Of a stretch of 64,000 nt of DNA, positions 37,203 to 62,043 are shown piece by piece. This DNA comes from Escherichia coli (GTDB taxonomy: Bacteria; Pseudomonadota; Gammaproteobacteria; Enterobacterales; Enterobacteriaceae), in NCBI RefSeq assembly GCF_051903065.1, contig NZ_CP178438.1; one strand, 5' to 3'. Below the pieces are notes generated by a model, which did not search any database, was not told where the DNA came from, and worked only from the letters and a program-made list of their open reading frames with translations. A program made the position numbers and the translations under genes. Within the stretch, counting starts at the first letter, position 1. Every line of letters starts with the position of its first letter.

Positions 37203-38858
37203 TTAATCAGATTTAATCTGCGCGCGTGGTGGATACTTTTTCAGGATCTCCATATACGCGTGCATTTCGGTCTGTAGCGGTACACCCATCGGAATATGGC
37301 GCACGCCGATAGAGTCGCTCTCCTGCGGATCGGTGTACAGGTTAAACACCGACGATCCGGCTGTTTGCATTACTGTGCCGGTGAATCCACCCTGATATCC
37401 GCTCTGGGTATAAGCGTAAGGTTGCTGAATCAGGACGTGATACTTGAATTCATCCATACGCACAGCAGCGAGTTTACCGTTGAGGAAGTAGTGCTCGGCC
37501 TTACGGTTAGACTGACCATTTGTTCCCAGGAAGAAAGATGTCTGGTCCACACCATCGATAAAGGTGGTTTTCGGCACTAAATTCGCCACTTTCGCGCCAG
37601 GATGCCCTGCCAGATCCAGCGCGGTAGGGAAGAGATCTGCCAGATCGACAATACCGTCAGATTTACGCGGTTGGATCATCCCTTTCCAGTACACGAAAGT
37701 CGGAACGCGAACGCCGCCTTCCCAGGTAGATCCTTTCGCACCACGGAACGGTGTGCGTCCGTGCGGCGGTACTTCGGCTTCCGGTCCGTTATCGGAGGTA
37801 AAGACAATCAGCGTGTTATCAAGCTGACCGTTTTTCTCTAGTGCTTTATACAGATTAGCGAACACATCGTTCATTTCCACCATGCAGTCGCCATACGAGG
37901 TGCGTGCCGGAGAGCTACCCGCATATTTGGCGTTCGGGTAGTTATCGAAGTGACAGCCGCGAGTGCCGTAATAGAGGAAGAAAGGCTTCTCACTCTTCGC
38001 CATCTTGTCGAGGAACTTAACGCCATATTCCATCCAGCGTTGATCCAGATCTTCCATATATTTCGGCGTAATGTCGGCAATGGCCTGTTGTTCGCCGCCG
38101 CGCACCGCATGAACGTCATCTTTGCTAAATGGTAATTGCTTGATGTATTCAGAACGGTCCGGACTCAGGGCCACTTCCGGATTGACGTGAACGTCGCGCC
38201 ATTCGGTGTACATATCAGACACCGAGTTAAAGCCACGGAAATCATCAAAGCCAACGTTCTGCGGCTGCGACTCTTTGTTTTCCCCCATATGCCATTTCCC
38301 GATGGCCTGAGTGACGTAGCCCTGATCGTGCAGCAACTGCGGCAGCGTGGTTAACCCTTGCAGCCCGCCCGGTTGCCCGTACATTGGCGGCATCAGAATG
38401 CCGTGGTGGATGGAGTATTGTCCGGTGAGAATGGTGGCGCGGGTTGGGGAAGAGCTTGGTTGAGAATACGCCGAAGTTAAAATCAGCCCCTGGCTGGCAA
38501 CGGCGTCGATATCTGGTGTAGGGTTACCCACCGCCACGCCGCCACCGTTAAAACCGACGTCCATCCAGCCCACATCGTCCAGCAAGAAAACAACCACATT
38601 CGGTTTCTTACCGGTTTTTTTCTCAAGTTCTGCCAGCTTCTGCTGGGTTTCTTTATCCTGCGCCGGATGCTGCATTACTGGCATCATGTTGTCGGCAATA
38701 GTGGTCGCCGGTTTAACCAGATACTGGTTTGGGTGATCGTATCCGGCAAAGCCTTTGCGTGCGGTGGCAGTTGAAGGGGTATCTGCTGCGCTGGCCATGA
38801 GAGGAAGAGCGGCGGCGACAGCAACAACAAGAAGTTTGGGTGAAAACGAAAATTCCAT
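37203..38858 (-). CDS. aslA: arylsulfatase-like protein
   Basis: 551-aa ORF with signal peptide and sulfatase signature ([27 protein letters not shown] region). Confidence 0.9.
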
Positions 38859-39282
38859 GCAAAATGCTCCGGTTTCATGTCATCAAAATGATGACGTAAT
38901 TAAGCATTGATAATTGAGATCCCTCTCCCTGACAGGATGATTACATAAATAATAGTGACAAAAATAAATTATTTATTTATCCAGAAAATGAATTGGAAAA
39001 TCAGGAGAGCGTTTCCAATCCTACCTCTGGCGCAGTTGATATGTAAGGCAGGTTTATTATATCGCGTTGATTATTGATGCTGTTTTTAGTTTTAACGGCA
39101 ATTAATATATGCGTTATTAATTGAATGAATTTTATCATTCATAATAAGTATGTGTAGGATCAAGCTCAGGTTAAATATTCACTCAGGAAGTTATTACTCA
39201 GGAAGCCAAGAGGATTACAGAATTATCTCATAACAAGTGTTAAGGGATGTTATTTCCCGATTCTCTGTGGCATAATAAACGA

Positions 39283-39489
39283 GTAGATGCTCATTCCATC
39301 TCTTATGTTCGCCTTAGTGCCTCATAAACTCCGGAATGACGCAGAGCCGTTTACGGTGCTTATCGTCCACTGACAGATGTCGCTTATGCCTCATCAGACA
39401 CCATGGACACAACGTTGAGTGAAGCACCCACTTGTTGTCATACAGACCTGTTTTAACGCCTGCTCCGTAGTAAGAGCAGGCGTTTTTTT
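39283..39489 (+). ncRNA. glmZ: GlmZ small RNA
   Basis: starts GTAGATGCTCATTCCATCTCTTATG...; ends with hairpin gcctgctccgtagtaagagcaggc plus T7 on the + strand between minus-strand aslA and hemY; recognised as GlmZ from memory. Confidence 0.75.
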
Positions 39490-39536
39490 ATGTGTCAGGA
39501 AGGCCCCGGAGGTGCTTGCCTCCGGGTGAGAAGGAA

Positions 39537-40733
39537 CTACTGTGGTGGGTTGTTCTGCAACGTTAACATCAAACCGTCGCGACGCATCGCTGCAGCTTCT
39601 TCCGGCTTGTGCAGTCTGTCCAGCGCGTCGGCAAGCCATGCGTAATCGTAGGCGTCCGGACGTTGTTTCAGCGCTGCGCGGAAGGCGAGCGATGCTTCCT
39701 GCCATTCTCCGTGCTTCATCAGTGACTGGCCCAGTGTGCTCCACAACAGCGGGCGATCGCCGACGTTTTTGATTTGCTGGCGCAGCACTTTTTCAAGCTG
39801 TTCAGGGTTATTGGTTTTCAGACGCGGGATCGGCAGCAGTAGGCGATCGTCATACTGGCGTTTCAGGCCGTCGATGATAATTTGCTGGGCAGTATCATGA
39901 TCGTCACATTCAATAAGATGTTCCGCCATTGCCACCTGCAACGCTACCTGATGACGCGTTTTCCGGCTTTGGTTTTTCCACCAGTTACGCAAACCTTCGC
40001 TACCGTTATCGGCACGCGCCTGATCCATCAGGCCAATCCATGCCTGTTGTTCCAGCATTGCACGATGTTCTTCATCACCAACATGGGCTTTCGCCATTGA
40101 TGGGATAATATCCAGCAGCGAACTCCATGCACCTGTGCGGATATACGCCTGTTCCGCCAGACGTAATACTTCCGGATGGCGTGGCGTAACTTCCAGCAGC
40201 TTATCCACGCCGTGGCGTGCAGCATGGTTTTCATTACGGGCCAGTTGCAGACGTACACGGGTGATTTCTACCGGAATGGTGTCATTGCCGGCCAGCTCCG
40301 CTGCGCGTTCCAGATGTTGGTTGGCGCGCGCTTCATCACCACGTTGTTGCGCGGCTTCGGCAGCCAGTAGATAGTTCACCACCGGTTGTTCAGCGTGATC
40401 GGCATTTTTCGCCATCAGCTTTTCAACTTGCTGATAATCGCCTTCCGCCAGTTTCAGCAGCGCCTGTTCGGTCTGCTTACGTGCACGGCGACGCTTACGC
40501 CCGACAAACCACCCACGGGTGTGCGCGCCAGTGCGGAAGATCCGCCGCAGTAGCCACTCAATGGCAAACAGCACTACCATCGCCAGAATCAATATGATCG
40601 CCAGGCCCGTGACGCTGGTTTCGATATTGTAGTTGTCGGTCTGGATCAGCACATAACCCTGATGACCGGCAATCATCGGGCCAACCACGATCCCCGCAAT
40701 CAGCAACACAAAGAGCAATAACACTTTTAGCAT
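39537..40733 (-). CDS. hemY: heme biosynthesis-associated TPR membrane protein HemY
   Basis: 398-aa ORF, N-terminal TM helices then TPR-like repeats. Confidence 0.9.
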   Translation of the reverse strand: MLKVLLLFVLLIAGIVVGPMIAGHQGYVLIQTDNYNIETSVTGLAIILILAMVVLFAIEWLLRRIFRTGAHTRGWFVGRKRRRARKQTEQALLKLAEGDYQQVEKLMAKNADHAEQPVVNYLLAAEAAQQRGDEARANQHLERAAELAGNDTIPVEITRVRLQLARNENHAARHGVDKLLEVTPRHPEVLRLAEQAYIRTGAWSSLLDIIPSMAKAHVGDEEHRAMLEQQAWIGLMDQARADNGSEGLRNWWKNQSRKTRHQVALQVAMAEHLIECDDHDTAQQIIIDGLKRQYDDRLLLPIPRLKTNNPEQLEKVLRQQIKNVGDRPLLWSTLGQSLMKHGEWQEASLAFRAALKQRPDAYDYAWLADALDRLHKPEEAAAMRRDGLMLTLQNNPPQ

Positions 40734-57172: not shown

Positions 57173-58090
57173 TTACTTAGCGCACTTCTTCACATCAATA
57201 TTCCAGTTAGCACCAGACGCAACCTGATGTTTCTGCGCGAAATTATCCATATTCAGCGCCACGGAAACATTCAATAAGCTGTTCAGATACACCATCGGCT
57301 GACCTTCCGGCACATCGCCGAAGCTTGCGACATACGGCATTTTCCCTTCGTATTTTTGCTGGGAACCTTCGGAAATGGTTACACACAACGTGTCGTTGAG
57401 TTTGATTCCTGCCTGATTCAGCAACTCGTCGCTGATATTGCTCCAGACGTTGCCGTACTGAATATCGAGAATCGGGATATTGCCCTTCACTTCACCTTTT
57501 GTTGCTTTGGCTTTCTGATAAGAAAGTTCGACAACTTTTGCCGGAAGCTCTGGCCCCACCTGTTCGAACGTGATCGCTCCGGAAGCCAGGCGTGCACCGG
57601 TGTAGGCATACACGTCACGACCGTGGAAGGTATATGACTTTTCGGAACCTTTCAGGCGGTTGGTTTTTTCATCGATTTGCCGGACGCTCTCAATACCCAG
57701 CGATTCCGCCACCAAAGTGAGCGTACCGTTATCCGGTGAAACGAAGTATTGACCGTTTTTGGTTTTCAGCACTACCGATTTACGGTCTGTACCTACACCT
57801 GGATCGACCACGCTAACAAACACCGAACCTTGTGGCCAATAACTGGCGGTCTGATACAGGCGGTAAGCGCCTTCCCAGATGTTATACGGTGGAATTTCGT
57901 GTGTTAAATCAAAGATTTTAAGATTATGGTCAACACCGAATGCGACCCCTTTCATCGCCGAGACGGCACCATCTTTCAGGCTAAAATCAGTTTGTAAAAT
58001 CAAAGCGTTATCCGCATAAGCGGATGATGATCCCAGACACGTTAATAAAAATAACGTTGCGAGCGTTTTTTCATTTTTGTTTCCCTTCAT
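57173..58090 (-). CDS. exported DUF62 / SAM hydroxide adenosyltransferase-family protein
   Basis: 305-aa ORF; signal peptide MKGNKNEKTLATLFLLTCLGSSSAYA; family motifs LILQTDFSLKDGAVSAMKGV, VSVVDPGVGTDRKSVV, YFVSPDNGTL, ILDIQYGNVWSNI. Confidence 0.75.
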   Translation of the reverse strand: MKGNKNEKTLATLFLLTCLGSSSAYADNALILQTDFSLKDGAVSAMKGVAFGVDHNLKIFDLTHEIPPYNIWEGAYRLYQTASYWPQGSVFVSVVDPGVGTDRKSVVLKTKNGQYFVSPDNGTLTLVAESLGIESVRQIDEKTNRLKGSEKSYTFHGRDVYAYTGARLASGAITFEQVGPELPAKVVELSYQKAKATKGEVKGNIPILDIQYGNVWSNISDELLNQAGIKLNDTLCVTISEGSQQKYEGKMPYVASFGDVPEGQPMVYLNSLLNVSVALNMDNFAQKHQVASGANWNIDVKKCAK

Positions 58091-58156
58091 TTATCTGATG
58101 ATTTTCCAGCGGTGTAGCCAGCCCCAGTTTGTCTGGCCTCCTCGAGTGTACAATGC

Positions 58157-58921
58157 TTAACCTTTCCGCTCGACGGAAATCATGGTGACAAAAGGATAGC
58201 GTTGCCACGGGATTGCCCCGCCTTTCATATACATATGTGAAATCGTGCCATCAAGATTAAGCAGCTGCTCAACGTTCAGTTTCGCTTTGGCATAACAGGC
58301 AAAATCATAAAAATTTGTCGCCTGCTGGCTCAACAAAAACACGGCATTCCCATGTTTATTAATCCCAACACCGTTACGAATTTTACGTGAGGCGACGTTG
58401 GGATGAATACGCGGATTAATTACACTGTTTTCCATCAACATTGGCCCTGACTGCACCGCAAACTGAATCTCTTTACTGGTTTTGAAGGCATCCAGACGAA
58501 CGATGCCGACTTTATCTCCCGCGACATAAAACACGCCGCCAGGACTGATAAAGAAATTCCCTTCACCTGAAGCGAGATTTAACGCCACCTTCTGCTGACC
58601 GTTTTCGATGTACAAACCGAGCGGCGCATAGCTTTCATCATAGATGCCGCCGTTCATCGCCATCTGCACCTGACCGTGACTATTAATATCCGCCAGCAGA
58701 GCATGTAACGTTCCCCACGCTTCGCCATTGGCTTTTTGCCAGTACATTTTCACCCGCTCTGTTTGAGGATTAACGGTATACGCCTGTACGGTCAGCGTTG
58801 GATCTGAGAGTGCGCAATCATCAGCGGCAACAGCAAACAAGGGAAGTAAGGTGAGAGTGAGAAAAATCCGTTTGAGATTCAAGGTGATCATTCCTTTACC
58901 AATGAGTAGCCGATGCGCCAT
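58157..58921 (-). CDS. yigE: DUF2233-family secreted protein YigE
   Basis: 254-aa ORF with N-terminal hydrophobic signal region; gene identity from position next to corA and recalled family. Confidence 0.75.
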   Translation of the reverse strand: MAHRLLIGKGMITLNLKRIFLTLTLLPLFAVAADDCALSDPTLTVQAYTVNPQTERVKMYWQKANGEAWGTLHALLADINSHGQVQMAMNGGIYDESYAPLGLYIENGQQKVALNLASGEGNFFISPGGVFYVAGDKVGIVRLDAFKTSKEIQFAVQSGPMLMENSVINPRIHPNVASRKIRNGVGINKHGNAVFLLSQQATNFYDFACYAKAKLNVEQLLNLDGTISHMYMKGGAIPWQRYPFVTMISVERKG

Positions 58922-59290: not shown

Positions 59291-60241
59291 ATGCTGAGCG
59301 CATTTCAACTGGAAAATAACCGACTGACCCGGCTGGAAGTCGAAGAGTCACAACCCCTTGTAAATGCAGTATGGATTGATCTTGTCGAACCGGACGACGA
59401 CGAGCGACTGCGCGTACAATCTGAACTTGGCCAGAGCCTGGCAACCCGCCCGGAACTGGAAGACATCGAAGCATCGGCCCGTTTCTTTGAAGACGATGAC
59501 GGCCTGCACATTCACTCCTTCTTCTTCTTTGAAGATGCGGAAGATCACGCCGGTAACTCCACTGTGGCATTTACCATCCGTGATGGTCGTCTGTTTACTC
59601 TGCGTGAGCGTGAACTGCCCGCTTTTCGTCTGTATCGTATGCGTGCCCGTAGCCAGTCGATGGTAGACGGTAACGCCTACGAGCTGCTGCTGGATCTGTT
59701 CGAAACCAAAATCGAACAGTTGGCAGATGAAATTGAAAATATCTATAGCGACCTGGAGCAATTGAGCCGGGTGATTATGGAAGGGCATCAGGGCGATGAG
59801 TACGACGAGGCGCTCTCCACGCTGGCGGAACTGGAAGATATCGGCTGGAAAGTGCGCCTGTGTCTGATGGATACCCAGCGCGCTCTCAACTTCCTGGTGC
59901 GTAAAGCGCGTTTACCGGGTGGGCAACTGGAGCAGGCGCGTGAAATCCTGCGAGATATCGAATCCCTGCTGCCGCATAACGAATCCCTGTTCCAGAAGGT
60001 GAACTTCCTGATGCAGGCGGCAATGGGTTTTATCAACATCGAGCAGAACCGCATCATCAAAATTTTCTCGGTGGTATCCGTCGTGTTCCTGCCGCCAACG
60101 CTGGTTGCTTCCAGCTACGGGATGAACTTTGAGTTTATGCCAGAACTGAAGTGGAGTTTCGGCTACCCAGGCGCGATTATCTTTATGATCCTCGCGGGCC
60201 TGGCACCGTATCTGTACTTTAAGCGGAAGAACTGGTTGTAA
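59291..60241 (+). CDS. corA: magnesium/cobalt transporter CorA
   Basis: ORF 59276-60241 trimmed to [13 protein letters not shown]; YGMNF signature and C-terminal TM helices. Confidence 0.93.
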
Positions 60242-60283
60242 AAAACGAGAGCGGTGGCTTAGTCTGGCTAAGCCACCTGTTAT

Positions 60284-60664
60284 TCAAAGGCTCCAGGTAT
60301 TTAACCCTTTTACCTCTTTCTCATAGAACCATTTGTTCGTGTTAACAGCAACATAGGCTGCTACGGCAATTCCCAGAATGTTAACGCCAATTAATGCACC
60401 AACAAATAGAGATAGAATGCCAAGTAATAGAACTATAATTGCTTTTTTCCATAAGCCCAGAACAAATAAATAGATCCAGGAACAGAAGAAAGCAATGAAA
60501 TTCATTTGAATAGTTAATCGTTGTCTTACTTTTAATGCTTTAAATGCTGCTTTATATTCTGGTGTTGCTCCCCAGAATCCAGGAAAGCCATGTTGATCAT
60601 AAAAATTAAATCGGTATTTCCATTTTTCACTTAATGAACCATCGTTCATATATTCCTTACTCAT
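60284..60664 (-). CDS. yigF: small inner-membrane protein YigF
   Basis: ORF 60284-60706 trimmed to MSKEYMNDGSL (126 aa); two TM helices; AT-rich. Confidence 0.75.
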   Translation of the reverse strand: MSKEYMNDGSLSEKWKYRFNFYDQHGFPGFWGATPEYKAAFKALKVRQRLTIQMNFIAFFCSWIYLFVLGLWKKAIIVLLLGILSLFVGALIGVNILGIAVAAYVAVNTNKWFYEKEVKGLNTWSL

Positions 60665-60677
60665 AAATACTCCATAA

Positions 60678-61058
60678 CTATTGTTTTGATGAATCAGTAG
60701 GTGCAAGCATTAGCATACTGAAAGTGGAAAAATAACAAATCAAAAAAATCATCGAACCATTGCCTGAACAGGCAAAATCTTCGGCTATCATTGTGATGAT
60801 AGAGATGATATATACTGCTAATGTACCAAAAACATAAGTTTTTATATAGATGAAACCACTATCACGGAGTCGCTGGCAATTCATGTTGATGACGAGATAA
60901 TGGAGTACGATGGTAGAGACTATAACAAGAAAACCTACTTCCCCATCGTTAAAAAAGATAATAAGAAAGGCAAAAATGAAATTTATTAAAATAAATGAAA
61001 ATATATATCGGCGTCTGGAAATCTTACCGTTAGATGTTGGGATAAACATACGTAACAT
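60678..61058 (-). CDS. yigG: small inner-membrane protein YigG
   Basis: ORF 60678-61118; start tentatively at [12 protein letters not shown] (126 aa); several TM helices; AT-rich. Confidence 0.65.
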
Positions 61059-61152
61059 AAATTTTACATCCTTGTGTGAGTCTCCTGTCAGCATGGCAAT
61101 ATGCCCACTCTCATACAAGAGTCGGCATATTTTTTCAGAATATATTTATTTT

Positions 61153-62043
61153 TTATTTGGACGTTCTACGCTGCGTATAAATCGCATCCATCACAAAAAT
61201 TGCCAGCGCCACCCAAATAAAGGCGAAAGTCACCATCTTATCGGCACCCGGTTTTTCACCATAAAACGTCACAGCCAGCAGGAACATCAGCGTCGGGCCA
61301 ATGTACTGGAAAAAGCCTAACGTTGAGAGACGCAGGCGCGTGGCAGCGGCAGTAAAACACAACAGCGGTACGGTAGTGACAATACCGGCGGCGATCAGCA
61401 GTAAATTCAGCGACATCGGGTTTTGCCCCATATGGCTGGTTGAGCTGTCGGCAATAGCAAACAGGTAAATCGCCGCCACGGGCAGCAGCCACATAGTTTC
61501 GATTAACATGCCGGTTTGCGCTTCAACGGCAATCTTCTTGCGTACCAGACCGTAGAAGGCAAAACTAAATGCCAGCCCCAGCGCGATGATCGGCAGTGAA
61601 CCAAAAGTCCAGAGCTGAACCAACACGCCACATATCGCCAGAATCACCGCCAGCCATTGCATCCGGCGGAATCGCTCGCCGAGGAAAATCATCCCCAGCA
61701 CAATGTTCACCAGCGGGTTAATAAAGTAACCAAGGCTCGCTTCCAGCATATGGTGATTGTTCACCGCCCAGATAAACAGTAGCCAGTTGCCGCCAATCAG
61801 CACGGCAGAGACTGCCAGCATAAAAATTTTCTGTGGCGTCTGAATCAGCGTTTTTAAATAGGACCACTGGCGGCAAATGCTCATCAGCACCACCATAAAG
61901 AAAAATGACCAGATCACGCGATGCGTCAGGATTTCATCGGCGGGCACGTAGTAAATCAACTTGAAGTACGCTGGGGCTATACCCCAAATAAAATAAGCGG
62001 CAAGAGCGAGTAATACGCCCTGCCGCGTTTGTTTTGCATCCAT
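61153..62043 (-). CDS. rarD: EamA/DMT-family membrane protein RarD
   Basis: 296-aa polytopic membrane ORF. Confidence 0.9.
   Translation of the reverse strand: MDAKQTRQGVLLALAAYFIWGIAPAYFKLIYYVPADEILTHRVIWSFFFMVVLMSICRQWSYLKTLIQTPQKIFMLAVSAVLIGGNWLLFIWAVNNHHMLEASLGYFINPLVNIVLGMIFLGERFRRMQWLAVILAICGVLVQLWTFGSLPIIALGLAFSFAFYGLVRKKIAVEAQTGMLIETMWLLPVAAIYLFAIADSSTSHMGQNPMSLNLLLIAAGIVTTVPLLCFTAAATRLRLSTLGFFQYIGPTLMFLLAVTFYGEKPGADKMVTFAFIWVALAIFVMDAIYTQRRTSK

Follow-up and report, generated by a model that had tools for sequence, protein, structure and literature searches.

The O-antigen locus between galF and gnd is a replacement hotspot anchored in its flanks, and other hotspots are likewise defined by conserved core-gene flanks. 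The gap between corA and rarD in Escherichia coli resembles such loci in that unrelated low-GC gene sets occur between the same core genes, recombination appears to act in the flanks, and deep alleles are found across species. However, it is very small (0.9–2.7 kb, two to four genes) and, unlike loci of the O-antigen type, it can hold tandem-stacked alleles with duplicated flank ends.

A second comparison is with orphan T6SS effector-immunity islets. In the DUF3289/DUF943 pair, the first protein has been described as a colicin M-like toxin and the second as the one that confers immunity to it (PMC11148199), and an Aeromonas DUF3289 effector was found to be T6SS-dependent (PMC12135965). These islets use the same gap as yigF and yigG (hereafter yigFG), and the two are alike in being AT-rich, in encoding small membrane proteins, in lacking mobility genes, and in showing both presence/absence and deep allelic polymorphism. 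They differ in that yigFG has no toxin partner and no match to a known immunity family, and in that its motifs are conserved across genera.

The third comparison, with the H-NS-silenced promoter islands of K-12, is literal, because yigF-yigG is one of them (663 bp in MG1655; Figure 1 of PMC3661553), and the K-12-type allele shows no difference. In K-12 the pair was predicted to be foreign by two methods and was H-NS-bound in all ChIP studies (PMC3661553, Table 1), and a small extended protein-occupancy domain (EPOD) spans yigF, yigG, and rarD (bioRxiv 10.1101/2020.01.29.924811). The fragment “yigG 1.2,” to which both published primers match exactly at 60758..60907 (− strand), contains an H-NS-repressed intragenic promoter within yigG, dependent on both an AT-tract and sigma70 R451 (PMC7229825). 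Together, these studies class the pair as horizontally acquired and H-NS-bound, and describe the K-12 block as H-NS-coated and transcriptionally quiet, with spurious intragenic promoters (PMC3661553; PMC7229825; bioRxiv 10.1101/2020.01.29.924811). That yigF-yigG of K-12 is an AT-rich, H-NS-silenced, and presumably foreign islet is already published. The K-12 promoter-island papers do not include the population polymorphism, alternative cassettes, and cross-genus distribution described here.

The context that we add (purifying selection in eight genera, deep alleles that cross species boundaries, and a slot shared with a T6SS toxin-immunity pair) could make YigF and YigG experimentally tractable. 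Our reading, to which we give a probability of roughly 75%, is that yigG-yigF is an ancient accessory two-gene cassette without mobility genes, exchanged through its flanks and silenced by H-NS, with a conditionally expressed envelope function at which we can only guess.

Layout of the corA-rarD gap

Gene coordinates were taken from the RefSeq annotation of an E. coli chromosome that is 100% identical to the window (the whole 64,000-nt stretch of DNA that was analyzed). The gap is bounded by corA (59291..60241, + strand) and rarD (61153..62043, − strand), the conserved left and right flanks and, as we see it, the left and right recombination anchors. Their convergent arrangement is conserved across 70+ species of Enterobacterales. 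Between them lie yigG (60678..61058, − strand), for a four-helix inner-membrane protein of a divergent DUF805-like lineage, and yigF (60284..60664, − strand), for a DUF2628 inner-membrane protein. Each product has 126 aa and both are strongly hydrophobic, as anticipated by an earlier sequence-only reading, which had described two small hydrophobic proteins here. The 13-nt spacer between the two genes (60665..60677, − strand), with a GGAG Shine-Dalgarno sequence 8 nt before the yigF ATG, gives what looks like the layout of a bicistronic operon, and the genes are probably co-transcribed. In one relative (locus L096), yigG and yigF overlap by 4 bp.

Junction comparison places the rarD-yigG spacer, with the yigG leader, at 61059..61152 (− strand). 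It is conserved across alleles A, A', and B of E. coli, and it persists where deletion has removed yigF and the greater part of yigG; locus L003, for example, holds a 21-aa yigG remnant. At the other end, homology between alternative alleles stops right past the corA stop codon. Incidentally, position 61118, the end coordinate in the sequence-only reading, is the TTG start of a mechanical ORF and not the annotated yigG start.

No trace of a mobile element was found. The block has only two ORFs, without Pfam or PHROGs mobility matches; there are no flanking repeats around yigF-yigG, and there is no tRNA within 57–64 kb. Overall, the features of a classical genomic island or integrative element (integrase or transposase, direct repeats, an att/tRNA site) are missing from yigF-yigG. 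On the other hand, those of an H-NS-type islet are apparent in the sequence: AT-richness that includes synonymous sites, and a distribution that is patchy relative to the flanking core genes.

A hairpin occurs at each end of the block. The first, which is GC-rich (60253..60277), is common to the convergent corA and yigF and is terminator-like on both strands, matching in a terminator scan in either direction (fold energies of −21.0 and −17.5 kcal/mol, z of −4.2 and −3.8). Each alternative cassette carries its own, different hairpin after corA. The second is a strong hairpin followed by T6 (61098..61137, + strand), resembling a terminator for transcription that exits the AT-rich island toward rarD; its fold energy is −15.8 kcal/mol (z −4.2) on the + strand and −20 kcal/mol (z −5.1) on the − strand. 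A simple terminator scan did not detect this hairpin, which is conserved in loci L002, L003, L007, and L026. On the − strand it is followed by no U-tract, so transcription of rarD may continue into yigG. We also considered a noncoding RNA in the block and rejected it, given that the Rfam matches were sub-threshold noise only.

Base composition

GC content over 60284–61118 (835 bp) is 0.3425, compared with 0.519 for the whole 64-kb window (z = −4.5 against all 835-bp windows; mean 0.519, sd 0.039), and this is the lowest-GC stretch of its length in the entire window. One other stretch falls below 0.42 GC, the aslA-hemY intergenic region near 38.5–39.5 kb. In 300-bp windows, GC is 0.31–0.36 across ~60300..61200, with sharp edges. 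The low values extend to every part of the block (0.346 in yigF, 0.331 in yigG, and 0.351 in the yigG-rarD spacer, vs. 0.528 in corA and 0.510 in rarD). At third codon positions, GC is 0.28 in yigF and 0.33 in yigG, compared with about 0.62–0.63 in corA and rarD, and because the bias is present at synonymous sites it is not merely an effect of membrane-protein amino-acid composition. The windowed calculation thus puts yigF-yigG outside the range of the flanking genes (0.34 vs. 0.52), in agreement with the impression from the letters alone that the pair is more AT-rich than its neighbors.

The AT-richness is not uniform across genera. The GC3 of the cassette is 0.51–0.63 in Kosakonia, Phytobacter, and Pseudescherichia, compared with 0.28–0.44 in the Escherichia/Salmonella group. 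No AT-rich donor was found, and the closest outside relatives belong to the GC-rich genus Pseudomonas. AT-richness that lasts in a module of such age is more than donor DNA that has yet to ameliorate.

Polymorphism and alternative cassettes in E. coli

The gap was classified in 5426 complete E. coli genomes using megablast coverage thresholds, which left 78 of them unclassified. yigFG is present in 2962 (55%), of which about 566 hold a diverged allele whose synonymous divergence is 5–10 times that of the flanks. A T6SS toxin/immunity pair, DUF3289/DUF943, is found in the gap of 2627 genomes (roughly half of the sequenced E. coli); it is frequently stacked next to yigFG, following a duplicate of the corA 3′ end. 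Another pair of small membrane proteins (C-type) is found in 1431 genomes. A further 927 genomes hold only a yigG remnant, 299 have a composite gap, and in 28 the gap is near-empty. These counts refute the earlier suggestion that the module is fixed in the core genome, and they caution against taking “AT-rich between core genes in K-12” to mean “fixed.” An attempt to classify the C-type protein of 99–104 aa as DUF805- or YigF-like was unsupported by hhalign.

Stacked cassettes in other genomes adjoin duplicated corA 3′ fragments of 147–274 bp. In E. coli, the duplicate is 147 bp long and 92.5–94% identical; in Atlantibacter, stacking involves 192 bp of rarD and 274 bp of corA, the rarD 3′ duplicate being that of Atlantibacter subterranea.

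The corA-rarD gap acts as a hotspot at which interchangeable cassettes replace one another, and yigFG is an old but not fixed occupant. The gap could serve as a small and clean model for how cassettes free of mobility genes are exchanged and stacked via recombination in conserved flanks.

Distribution across genera

Phyletic analysis found yigFG in at least seven genera besides Escherichia, and found it to be absent from most other Enterobacteriaceae sampled. Intact copies beside corA occur in Escherichia, Salmonella, Superficieibacter, Pseudescherichia, Atlantibacter, Phytobacter, Kosakonia, and Mangrovibacter (14 loci in these eight genera retain both reading frames). Most relatives have an empty corA-rarD gap of 29–110 bp with only a hairpin, an ancestral or alternative state of the site, including most species of Enterobacter, Citrobacter, Klebsiella, Kluyvera, and Cedecea, among others. 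Salmonella is itself polymorphic: according to the literature, S. Enteritidis lacks yigG, and isolates of S. Newport vary in yigF (PMC3579871, PMC12952584).

For the most part, trees of the two genes agree with that of the flanks. This congruence would fit one very old gain with many losses as well as it would fit repeated transfer. The sequence-only reading called the pair an old, horizontally acquired module; it is indeed old and foreign-looking (AT-rich and absent from most genera), and its acquisition from elsewhere is a matter of inference.

Two other origins were considered and rejected. The first is plasmid carriage: “plasmid” matches in E. coli, Salmonella, and Kosakonia were to non-mobilizable records, and the one such record that was opened (NZ_CP047533.1) carries xerC-uvrD-corA-rarD-recQ and is chromosomal sequence that was mislabeled. 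Matches on Pantoea megaplasmids are to solitary paralogs with 39% identity. The second is a phage origin: there are no PHROGs matches for YigF, YigG, or the C-type proteins, and two “phage” matches were to unannotated fragments of 1.6–3.5 kb.

Selection and exchange

Both genes are under purifying selection (dN/dS of 0.04–0.24 for yigF and 0.20–0.31 for yigG), and dS between their alleles is discordant with that of the flanks. Comparison of the window with strain C31 (allele A vs. A') gives dS of 1.16 for yigF and 0.64 for yigG, against 0.11–0.12 for the flanks. The opposite is seen with Escherichia sp. E1V33, for which the window allele has dS of only 0.08, whereas the flanks are more distant (0.22–0.27). 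Also, YigF of E. albertii and that of the A' allele in E. coli share 99% identity, and in Mangrovibacter the alleles of yigF and yigG swap independently of each other.

Given that no integrase, tRNA, or flanking repeat is present, we infer that exchange occurs by homologous recombination in the flanks, as is also suggested by the junctions and the discordant dS values. If the cassette moves only via its flanks, every relative should adjoin corA, and all YigG-family members with known context do so.

The two proteins

YigF matches Pfam PF10947 (DUF2628) over residues 17–117 with 40.6 bits (cutoff 23, E 3.7e-10), and the A' allele scores 41 bits. An alignment of 13 enterobacterial, five Pseudomonas, and two unassigned metagenomic sequences revealed two invariant motifs, an N-terminal KWxxRFxF and YLxxLGLWKK; the invariant residues are K14, W15, R18, F19, F21, G26, Y65, and L69–K74 (LGLWKK). 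In the AlphaFold model (pLDDT 90.2, pTM 0.81), an N-terminal helical part is followed by long hydrophobic helices. The KWxxRFxF and LGLWKK motifs are common to YigF and to Pseudomonas DUF2628 members that are 40–46% identical to it. However, YigF at the enterobacterial corA locus always occurs with YigG, whereas the family members examined in Pseudomonas and Pantoea are solitary. The existence of solitary distant homologs without a YigG partner indicates that YigF can function without YigG. The genomic neighborhoods of the distant Pseudomonas homologs gave no functional lead, and a search of the literature on DUF2628, DUF805, and corA/rarD hotspots found nothing functional.

YigG matches NCBIfam NF008474 (PRK11371) with 254.4 bits (cutoff 217; profile positions 13–138 of 138). 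Its match to Pfam DUF805 (PF05656) is 17.0 bits, below the cutoff of 25.7, and across the family sub-threshold DUF805 matches were obtained for five of 14 members (the best with 22.1 bits, against 25.7). In the reverse direction, seven of 10 tested proteins with weak matches to the YigG profile (E 1e-8 to 1e-4) matched DUF805, four of them above the DUF805 threshold. These matches are compatible with YigG being a divergent DUF805 offshoot. The invariant residues of YigG are R15, R63, R65, D66, G68, and P120, and its AlphaFold model has four long helices (pLDDT 84–92). Like DUF805 proteins of the E. coli YhaH/YhaI type, YigG is a small protein of the inner membrane with four helices and a loop of the RxRDxG type. 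Its family differs in being tiny (a profile search of 1.84 billion representatives returned just 65 clusters, 23 of them at E ≤ 1e-10), in having no member that reaches the Pfam threshold, and in that all members with examined context are at the corA locus.

Homology between YigF and YigG was considered and rejected; the two proteins are unrelated. They may act together in the inner membrane; a model of the fused chains (pTM 0.45) gave no confident packing of the two halves.

Proposed explanation

In our preferred account, the operon would produce two small inner-membrane proteins, YigG (four-helix, DUF805-like) and YigF (DUF2628). The cassette would be gained, lost, or swapped only through homologous recombination in the corA and rarD flanks, and in E. 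coli the gap is filled in several ways: by yigFG (in two deep alleles), by an unrelated membrane pair, by DUF3289/DUF943, by stacks, by deletion remnants, or by next to nothing. The hairpin at each end would insulate the neighboring genes from the AT-rich block. Once silencing is relieved, the bicistron might be expressed by read-through from rarD and/or from a promoter in the 94-bp spacer. Our best guess is that YigF and YigG have an envelope function that is conditionally expressed.

Alternative explanations

The best of the alternatives, although still unlikely, is that YigF/YigG and the C-type proteins are orphan immunity-like proteins against toxins that act on the membrane or periplasm (T6SS, contact-dependent inhibition [CDI], colicins), and that frequency-dependent selection maintains multiple deep alleles in a dedicated islet. 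Immunity proteins to pore formers are small, polytopic proteins of the inner membrane, as are YigF and YigG. An orphan T6SS effector-immunity pair uses the same gap in the 2627 E. coli genomes noted above; its colicin M-like toxin and immunity protein, and the T6SS-dependent Aeromonas effector, are known from the literature (PMC11148199, PMC12135965). The presence/absence polymorphism, the allelic dS of 5–10 times that of the flanks, the sharing of alleles across species, and the independent shuffling of yigF and yigG in Mangrovibacter all count in its favor. However, a shared hotspot is guilt by association. No toxin gene is found beside yigFG in the approximately 18 loci examined, and DUF3289, where present, has its own DUF943 partner, with a corA fragment dividing that pair from yigFG. 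Motifs that are invariant across genera, and solitary Pseudomonas DUF2628 proteins without a nearby toxin, suggest an activity of a housekeeping type. dN/dS is well below 1, and positive selection was not seen at the available resolution. A PADLOC search (E ≤ 1) returned no defense-protein match for YigF, YigG, or the proteins of the alternative cassettes, on which basis an anti-phage defense system was also rejected, and our literature search linked neither DUF2628 nor DUF805 to immunity.

A wider version of this idea, to which we give slightly less credence, would make the corA-rarD gap as a whole a flank-anchored “interbacterial-conflict islet,” with yigF-yigG and the C-type pair as orphan protective proteins, stackable with DUF3289/DUF943, whose trans-species alleles are under balancing selection. 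If true, it would provide a first function for two y-ome proteins and for the DUF2628 and DUF805-like families.

It is distinctly improbable that YigG and YigF serve RarD (an EamA-family permease) or CorA as modulators or accessory subunits. Such a role would explain the constant position of the genes (always beside corA and, at all loci but L096, immediately downstream of rarD and in its orientation) and a possible co-transcription with rarD, for which the missing − strand U-tract and the single EPOD over yigF, yigG, and rarD leave room. But CorA and RarD function without yigFG in the many species and E. coli strains whose gap is empty or otherwise filled, and in L096 the upstream neighbor is a gene for an MR_MLE enzyme rather than rarD. 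The constant position follows more simply if flank recombination is the sole route of mobility.

A little less probable again is the reading that the module was acquired horizontally once, long ago, and was then fixed in the E. coli core genome. AT-rich synonymous sites, a position beside corA in several genera, and gene trees that are broadly congruent with the flanks could all be explained in this way. What speaks against it is the census, in which nearly half of the E. coli genomes lack yigFG and have the gap otherwise filled, reduced to a remnant, or near-empty, together with the deep allelic lineages, the alleles shared across species, and the polymorphism in Salmonella (PMC3579871, PMC12952584).

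Finally, the view that the yigF and yigG ORFs are nonfunctional (AT-rich filler, decaying foreign DNA, or an effect of hydrophobic composition) draws on the silent, H-NS-coated K-12 block with its spurious promoters, on the lack of a known E. coli phenotype, and on many truncated database entries, and is hardly credible against ORFs intact in 14 loci from eight genera with dN/dS of 0.04–0.31, invariant motifs, a GC3 bias at synonymous sites, a conserved Shine-Dalgarno sequence and operon layout (including the 4-bp overlap), and a Salmonella yigG deletion with mild attachment phenotypes that complementation restored only in part (PMC3579871).

Composition and gene layout of the corA–rarD gap

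The interval 60284–61118, which carries yigF and yigG between corA and rarD, has a GC content of 34.25%, compared with 51.9% for the window as a whole (z = −4.5 relative to all 835-bp windows), and it includes the lowest value anywhere in the 64 kb. In a 300-bp profile, GC drops from 0.50–0.55 to 0.31–0.36 over ~60300–61200 and rises again inside rarD; the windowed calculation thus confirms the AT-richness noted in the sequence-only reading. GC at third codon positions is 28% in yigF and 33% in yigG (62–63% in corA, rarD, and pldA), so the AT bias extends to synonymous sites and hydrophobic residues are not its sole source. The sequence of 60150–61300 is 100% identical to that of E. coli ECNB21-M121 and 98.3% identical to that of the laboratory strain Stbl4.

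In the RefSeq annotation, corA (59291–60241) is on the plus strand, and yigF (60284–60664; 126 aa), yigG (60678–61058; 126 aa), and rarD (61153–62043) are on the minus strand; position 61118, earlier taken as the right edge, is a mechanical ORF start only. With a spacing of 13 nt, a GGAG ahead of the yigF start, and a 4-bp overlap of the two genes in one relative, yigG–yigF has the layout of a predicted operon. A GC-rich hairpin at 60253–60277 resembles a terminator in both directions, that of corA and that of yigF. The strong hairpin at the rarD end (61098–61131) is followed by T6 on the plus strand only (61098–61137 in all); it would stop island transcripts heading to rarD while letting those of rarD run on into yigG. 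It is kept in the window-type allele (A), the diverged yigFG allele (A′), the allele with a yigG remnant (B), and Superficieibacter.

The sole other stretch of the window below 0.42 GC (835-bp windows) is 38859–39536, which is intergenic between a sulfatase gene (aslA-like, 37203–38858) and a hemY-like gene (39537–40733). The uvrD–corA interval 57173–58921 (GC about 0.43–0.50) contains two minus-strand genes, one of the SAM hydrolase/SAM-dependent halogenase family (57173–58090) and yigE (58157–58921). Because uvrD, ysgD, and corA are adjacent in Salmonella Typhimurium, this interval is another variable segment, on corA's other side.

The region has a published record. It is Figure 1 of a “promoter island” paper, Table 1 of which ties the island to genes predicted to be foreign by two independent methods, and it was H-NS-bound in all ChIP studies considered there (PMC3661553). 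One of six H-NS-repressed, AT-tract-dependent intragenic promoters comes from yigG (PMC7229825); the primers used map to 60758–60907 of the window, minus strand. A small extended protein-occupancy domain spans yigF, yigG, and rarD (bioRxiv 10.1101/2020.01.29.924811). In Salmonella, yigG was reported to be chlorine-responsive, and its deletion modestly reduced attachment, with only partial rescue by complementation; S. Enteritidis is described as being without yigG (PMC3579871), and closely related S. Newport isolates differ in yigF (PMC12952584). Given these papers, the AT-rich observation, correct as it is, and its “foreign” reading were already known. What we add is a description of the corA–rarD gap as a small, apparently recombination-driven hotspot of replacement and stacking. 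We found no such description in the searchable literature, although the hotspot belongs to a type of locus that is already known.

Gap contents across E. coli

We surveyed 5426 complete E. coli genomes at an 80% coverage threshold, with 78 left unclassified. Any allele of yigFG is present in 2962 of them, about 566 of which have A′ (83% DNA identity to the window). The sequence-only reading regarded the pair as an old horizontal acquisition fixed in the core genome; its age and foreign character stand, but fixation is refuted, as other genomes have different cassettes, remnants, or near-empty sites. The alternative cassettes are as AT-rich as yigFG (GC 0.33–0.34).

One such occupant is an orphan DUF943 + DUF3289 (YPO3983 family) pair, which directly follows corA, alone or in combination, in 2627 genomes (e.g., fetched corA loci L003, 1432–2774; L004, 364–1688; and L092, 1536–2878; the same gap as window 60242–61152). 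In the literature they figure as a colicin M-like T6SS toxin (DUF3289) and the cognate immunity protein, DUF943 (PMC11148199), and a DUF3289 effector was shown to be T6SS-dependent in Aeromonas (PMC12135965); no T6SS structural gene lies near the pair in the E. coli gap. The C-type pair, found in 1431 genomes (O157:H7 and O111 included), combines a 128-aa YigG-like protein with an unrelated membrane protein of 99–104 aa on the opposite strand. The YigG-like ORF (L001, 1617–2003; L004, 2049–2432; minus strand) is unannotated in O157:H7-type RefSeq genomes, in which only the neighboring 99-aa “hypothetical protein” is annotated. The rarD–corA interval of an enterobacterium other than E. coli (L095) contains a 157-aa relative, again with this partner. 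In B-type loci (927 genomes), DUF3289 abuts a 5′ remnant of yigG; 299 genomes have the composite corA–DUF943–DUF3289–corA′ (147 bp)–yigF–yigG–rarD, where corA′ is a duplicated corA 3′ end; and in 28 near-empty genomes an internal deletion of the C-type leaves a 128-bp gap.

Distribution outside E. coli

The corA locus was fetched from 80 species and rarD was located in each; the convergent pair is conserved across Enterobacterales in this set. The gap is a 29–110 bp GC-rich hairpin in most Enterobacter, Citrobacter, Klebsiella, Kluyvera, Cedecea, Trabulsiella, and other species. In Serratia, Pectobacterium, Pantoea, Dickeya, Edwardsiella, and others, the gap after corA holds something else, a 1.1–1.8 kb insert whose GC is normal or high (0.52–0.64; L054–L057, L061, L067, L068, L072–L076, L079, and L081–L084). 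The yigG–yigF pair fills the gap in Escherichia, Superficieibacter, Pseudescherichia, Phytobacter, Kosakonia, Mangrovibacter, “Enterobacter” sp. Bisph1, Atlantibacter subterranea, and Salmonella Typhimurium (YigF 84% and YigG 58% identical; GC 0.35–0.36 vs. 0.53), with GC below that of the flanks in every genus. Further YigG relatives from a profile search likewise adjoin corA.

All copies are intact, with pairwise dN/dS of 0.04–0.31, and are under purifying selection. YigF and YigG trees mostly track the flank tree (exceptions are Superficieibacter and the E. coli A′ YigF). Cassette GC3 is 0.28–0.44 in the Escherichia/Salmonella/Atlantibacter/Superficieibacter group, 0.51–0.63 in Kosakonia, Phytobacter, and Pseudescherichia, and 0.61 in one high-GC relative, where the flanks reach 0.72–0.86. 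Together, the intact copies beside corA in many genera, the trees, and the GC3 pattern support an old module, through one ancient gain and many losses, spread by flank recombination, or both.

Stacking and probable exchange of cassettes

Homology between alleles stops directly past the corA stop codon, and each cassette has its own hairpin. Compared with E. coli C31, the window is 97–98% identical in corA and rarD (dS 0.11–0.12) but 74.5% in yigF (dS 1.16) and 80% in yigG (dS 0.64). The reverse occurs with Escherichia sp. E1V33, where dS is 0.08 for the allele and 0.22–0.27 for the flanks; E. albertii has the A′ YigF at 99% identity. In Mangrovibacter spp. (L045, L048, and L052; gap 6951–8048), the deep allelic lineage of yigF switches without that of yigG, and vice versa, and neither follows the flanks: dS is 1.17 vs. 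0.13 for one pair of species and 0.20 vs. 1.45 for another (flanks 0.2–0.36), a pattern that implies breakpoints of recombination within the pair.

Stacked arrangements retain duplicated flank ends. E. coli stacks have only corA′ (L092, 3065–3211; L004, 1875–2021), which is 147 bp and 92.5–94% identical to the resident corA, with the same left junction in composite and C-type genomes. Atlantibacter subterranea has both a rarD 3′ end (rarD′; 192 bp, 94.8%) and corA′ (274 bp, 94.9%) between the DUF3289 pair and yigFG (L022, 8356–9090), the structure that a tandem union of alternative alleles from a single locus leaves behind. An integrase is absent from every cassette, and no flanking repeats or tRNA genes were found. 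We infer that cassettes are exchanged by recombination in the corA and rarD flanks; loss and stacking would likewise proceed by homologous, occasionally illegitimate, recombination anchored in these genes. Such anchoring would account for the YigG family never being found elsewhere.

PLSDB record NZ_CP047533.1, filed as a plasmid, carries the chromosomal block xerC–uvrD–corA–yigF–rarD–recQ, so a plasmid match for yigF is no evidence of mobility. The gene is also on other non-mobilizable records and on 4.9-Mb “plasmids” (further records include NZ_LN868946.1, NZ_OY843411.1, and NZ_CP134663.1).

Proteins and possible function

YigF belongs to DUF2628 (Pfam 40.6 bits, cutoff 23), and YigG matches the NCBI YigG equivalog model (254 bits, cutoff 217) but scores only 17 bits against Pfam DUF805, under the 25.7 threshold. 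A profile of 14 YigG-type proteins retrieved only 65 clusters (E ≤ 1e-3) among 1.84 billion representatives, and seven of 10 weaker hits tested match DUF805, a pattern that would make YigG a small, divergent branch of the DUF805 superfamily. AlphaFold predicts YigF confidently (pLDDT 90.2, pTM 0.81) as an N-terminal helical part plus long hydrophobic helices, and YigG, within a fused model, as four long helices (pLDDT 84–92). Sequence searches found no solved relatives of either protein, and fold searches returned generic helical bundles only. Invariant residues are R15, R63, R65, D66, G68, and P120 in YigG, and KWxxRFxF and YLxxLGLWKK in YigF, motifs also present in Pseudomonas proteins at 40–46% identity; the charged motifs are probably cytoplasmic.

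Silenced in laboratory K-12 (PMC3661553; PMC7229825), yigFG is most defensibly described as a putative, conditionally expressed inner-membrane pair. This conserved two-gene membrane module shares its slot with the DUF3289/DUF943 toxin–immunity pair and shows deep allelic polymorphism, features that would suit immunity-like proteins; however, no toxin is adjacent to yigFG in any of the roughly 18 loci examined, and motifs conserved out to solitary Pseudomonas homologs fit awkwardly, so we consider that role unlikely. More doubtful still is an accessory function for RarD or CorA, the flank products beside whose genes the pair resides and whose genes also stand together without it. That genes under such constraint are non-functional is barely credible.
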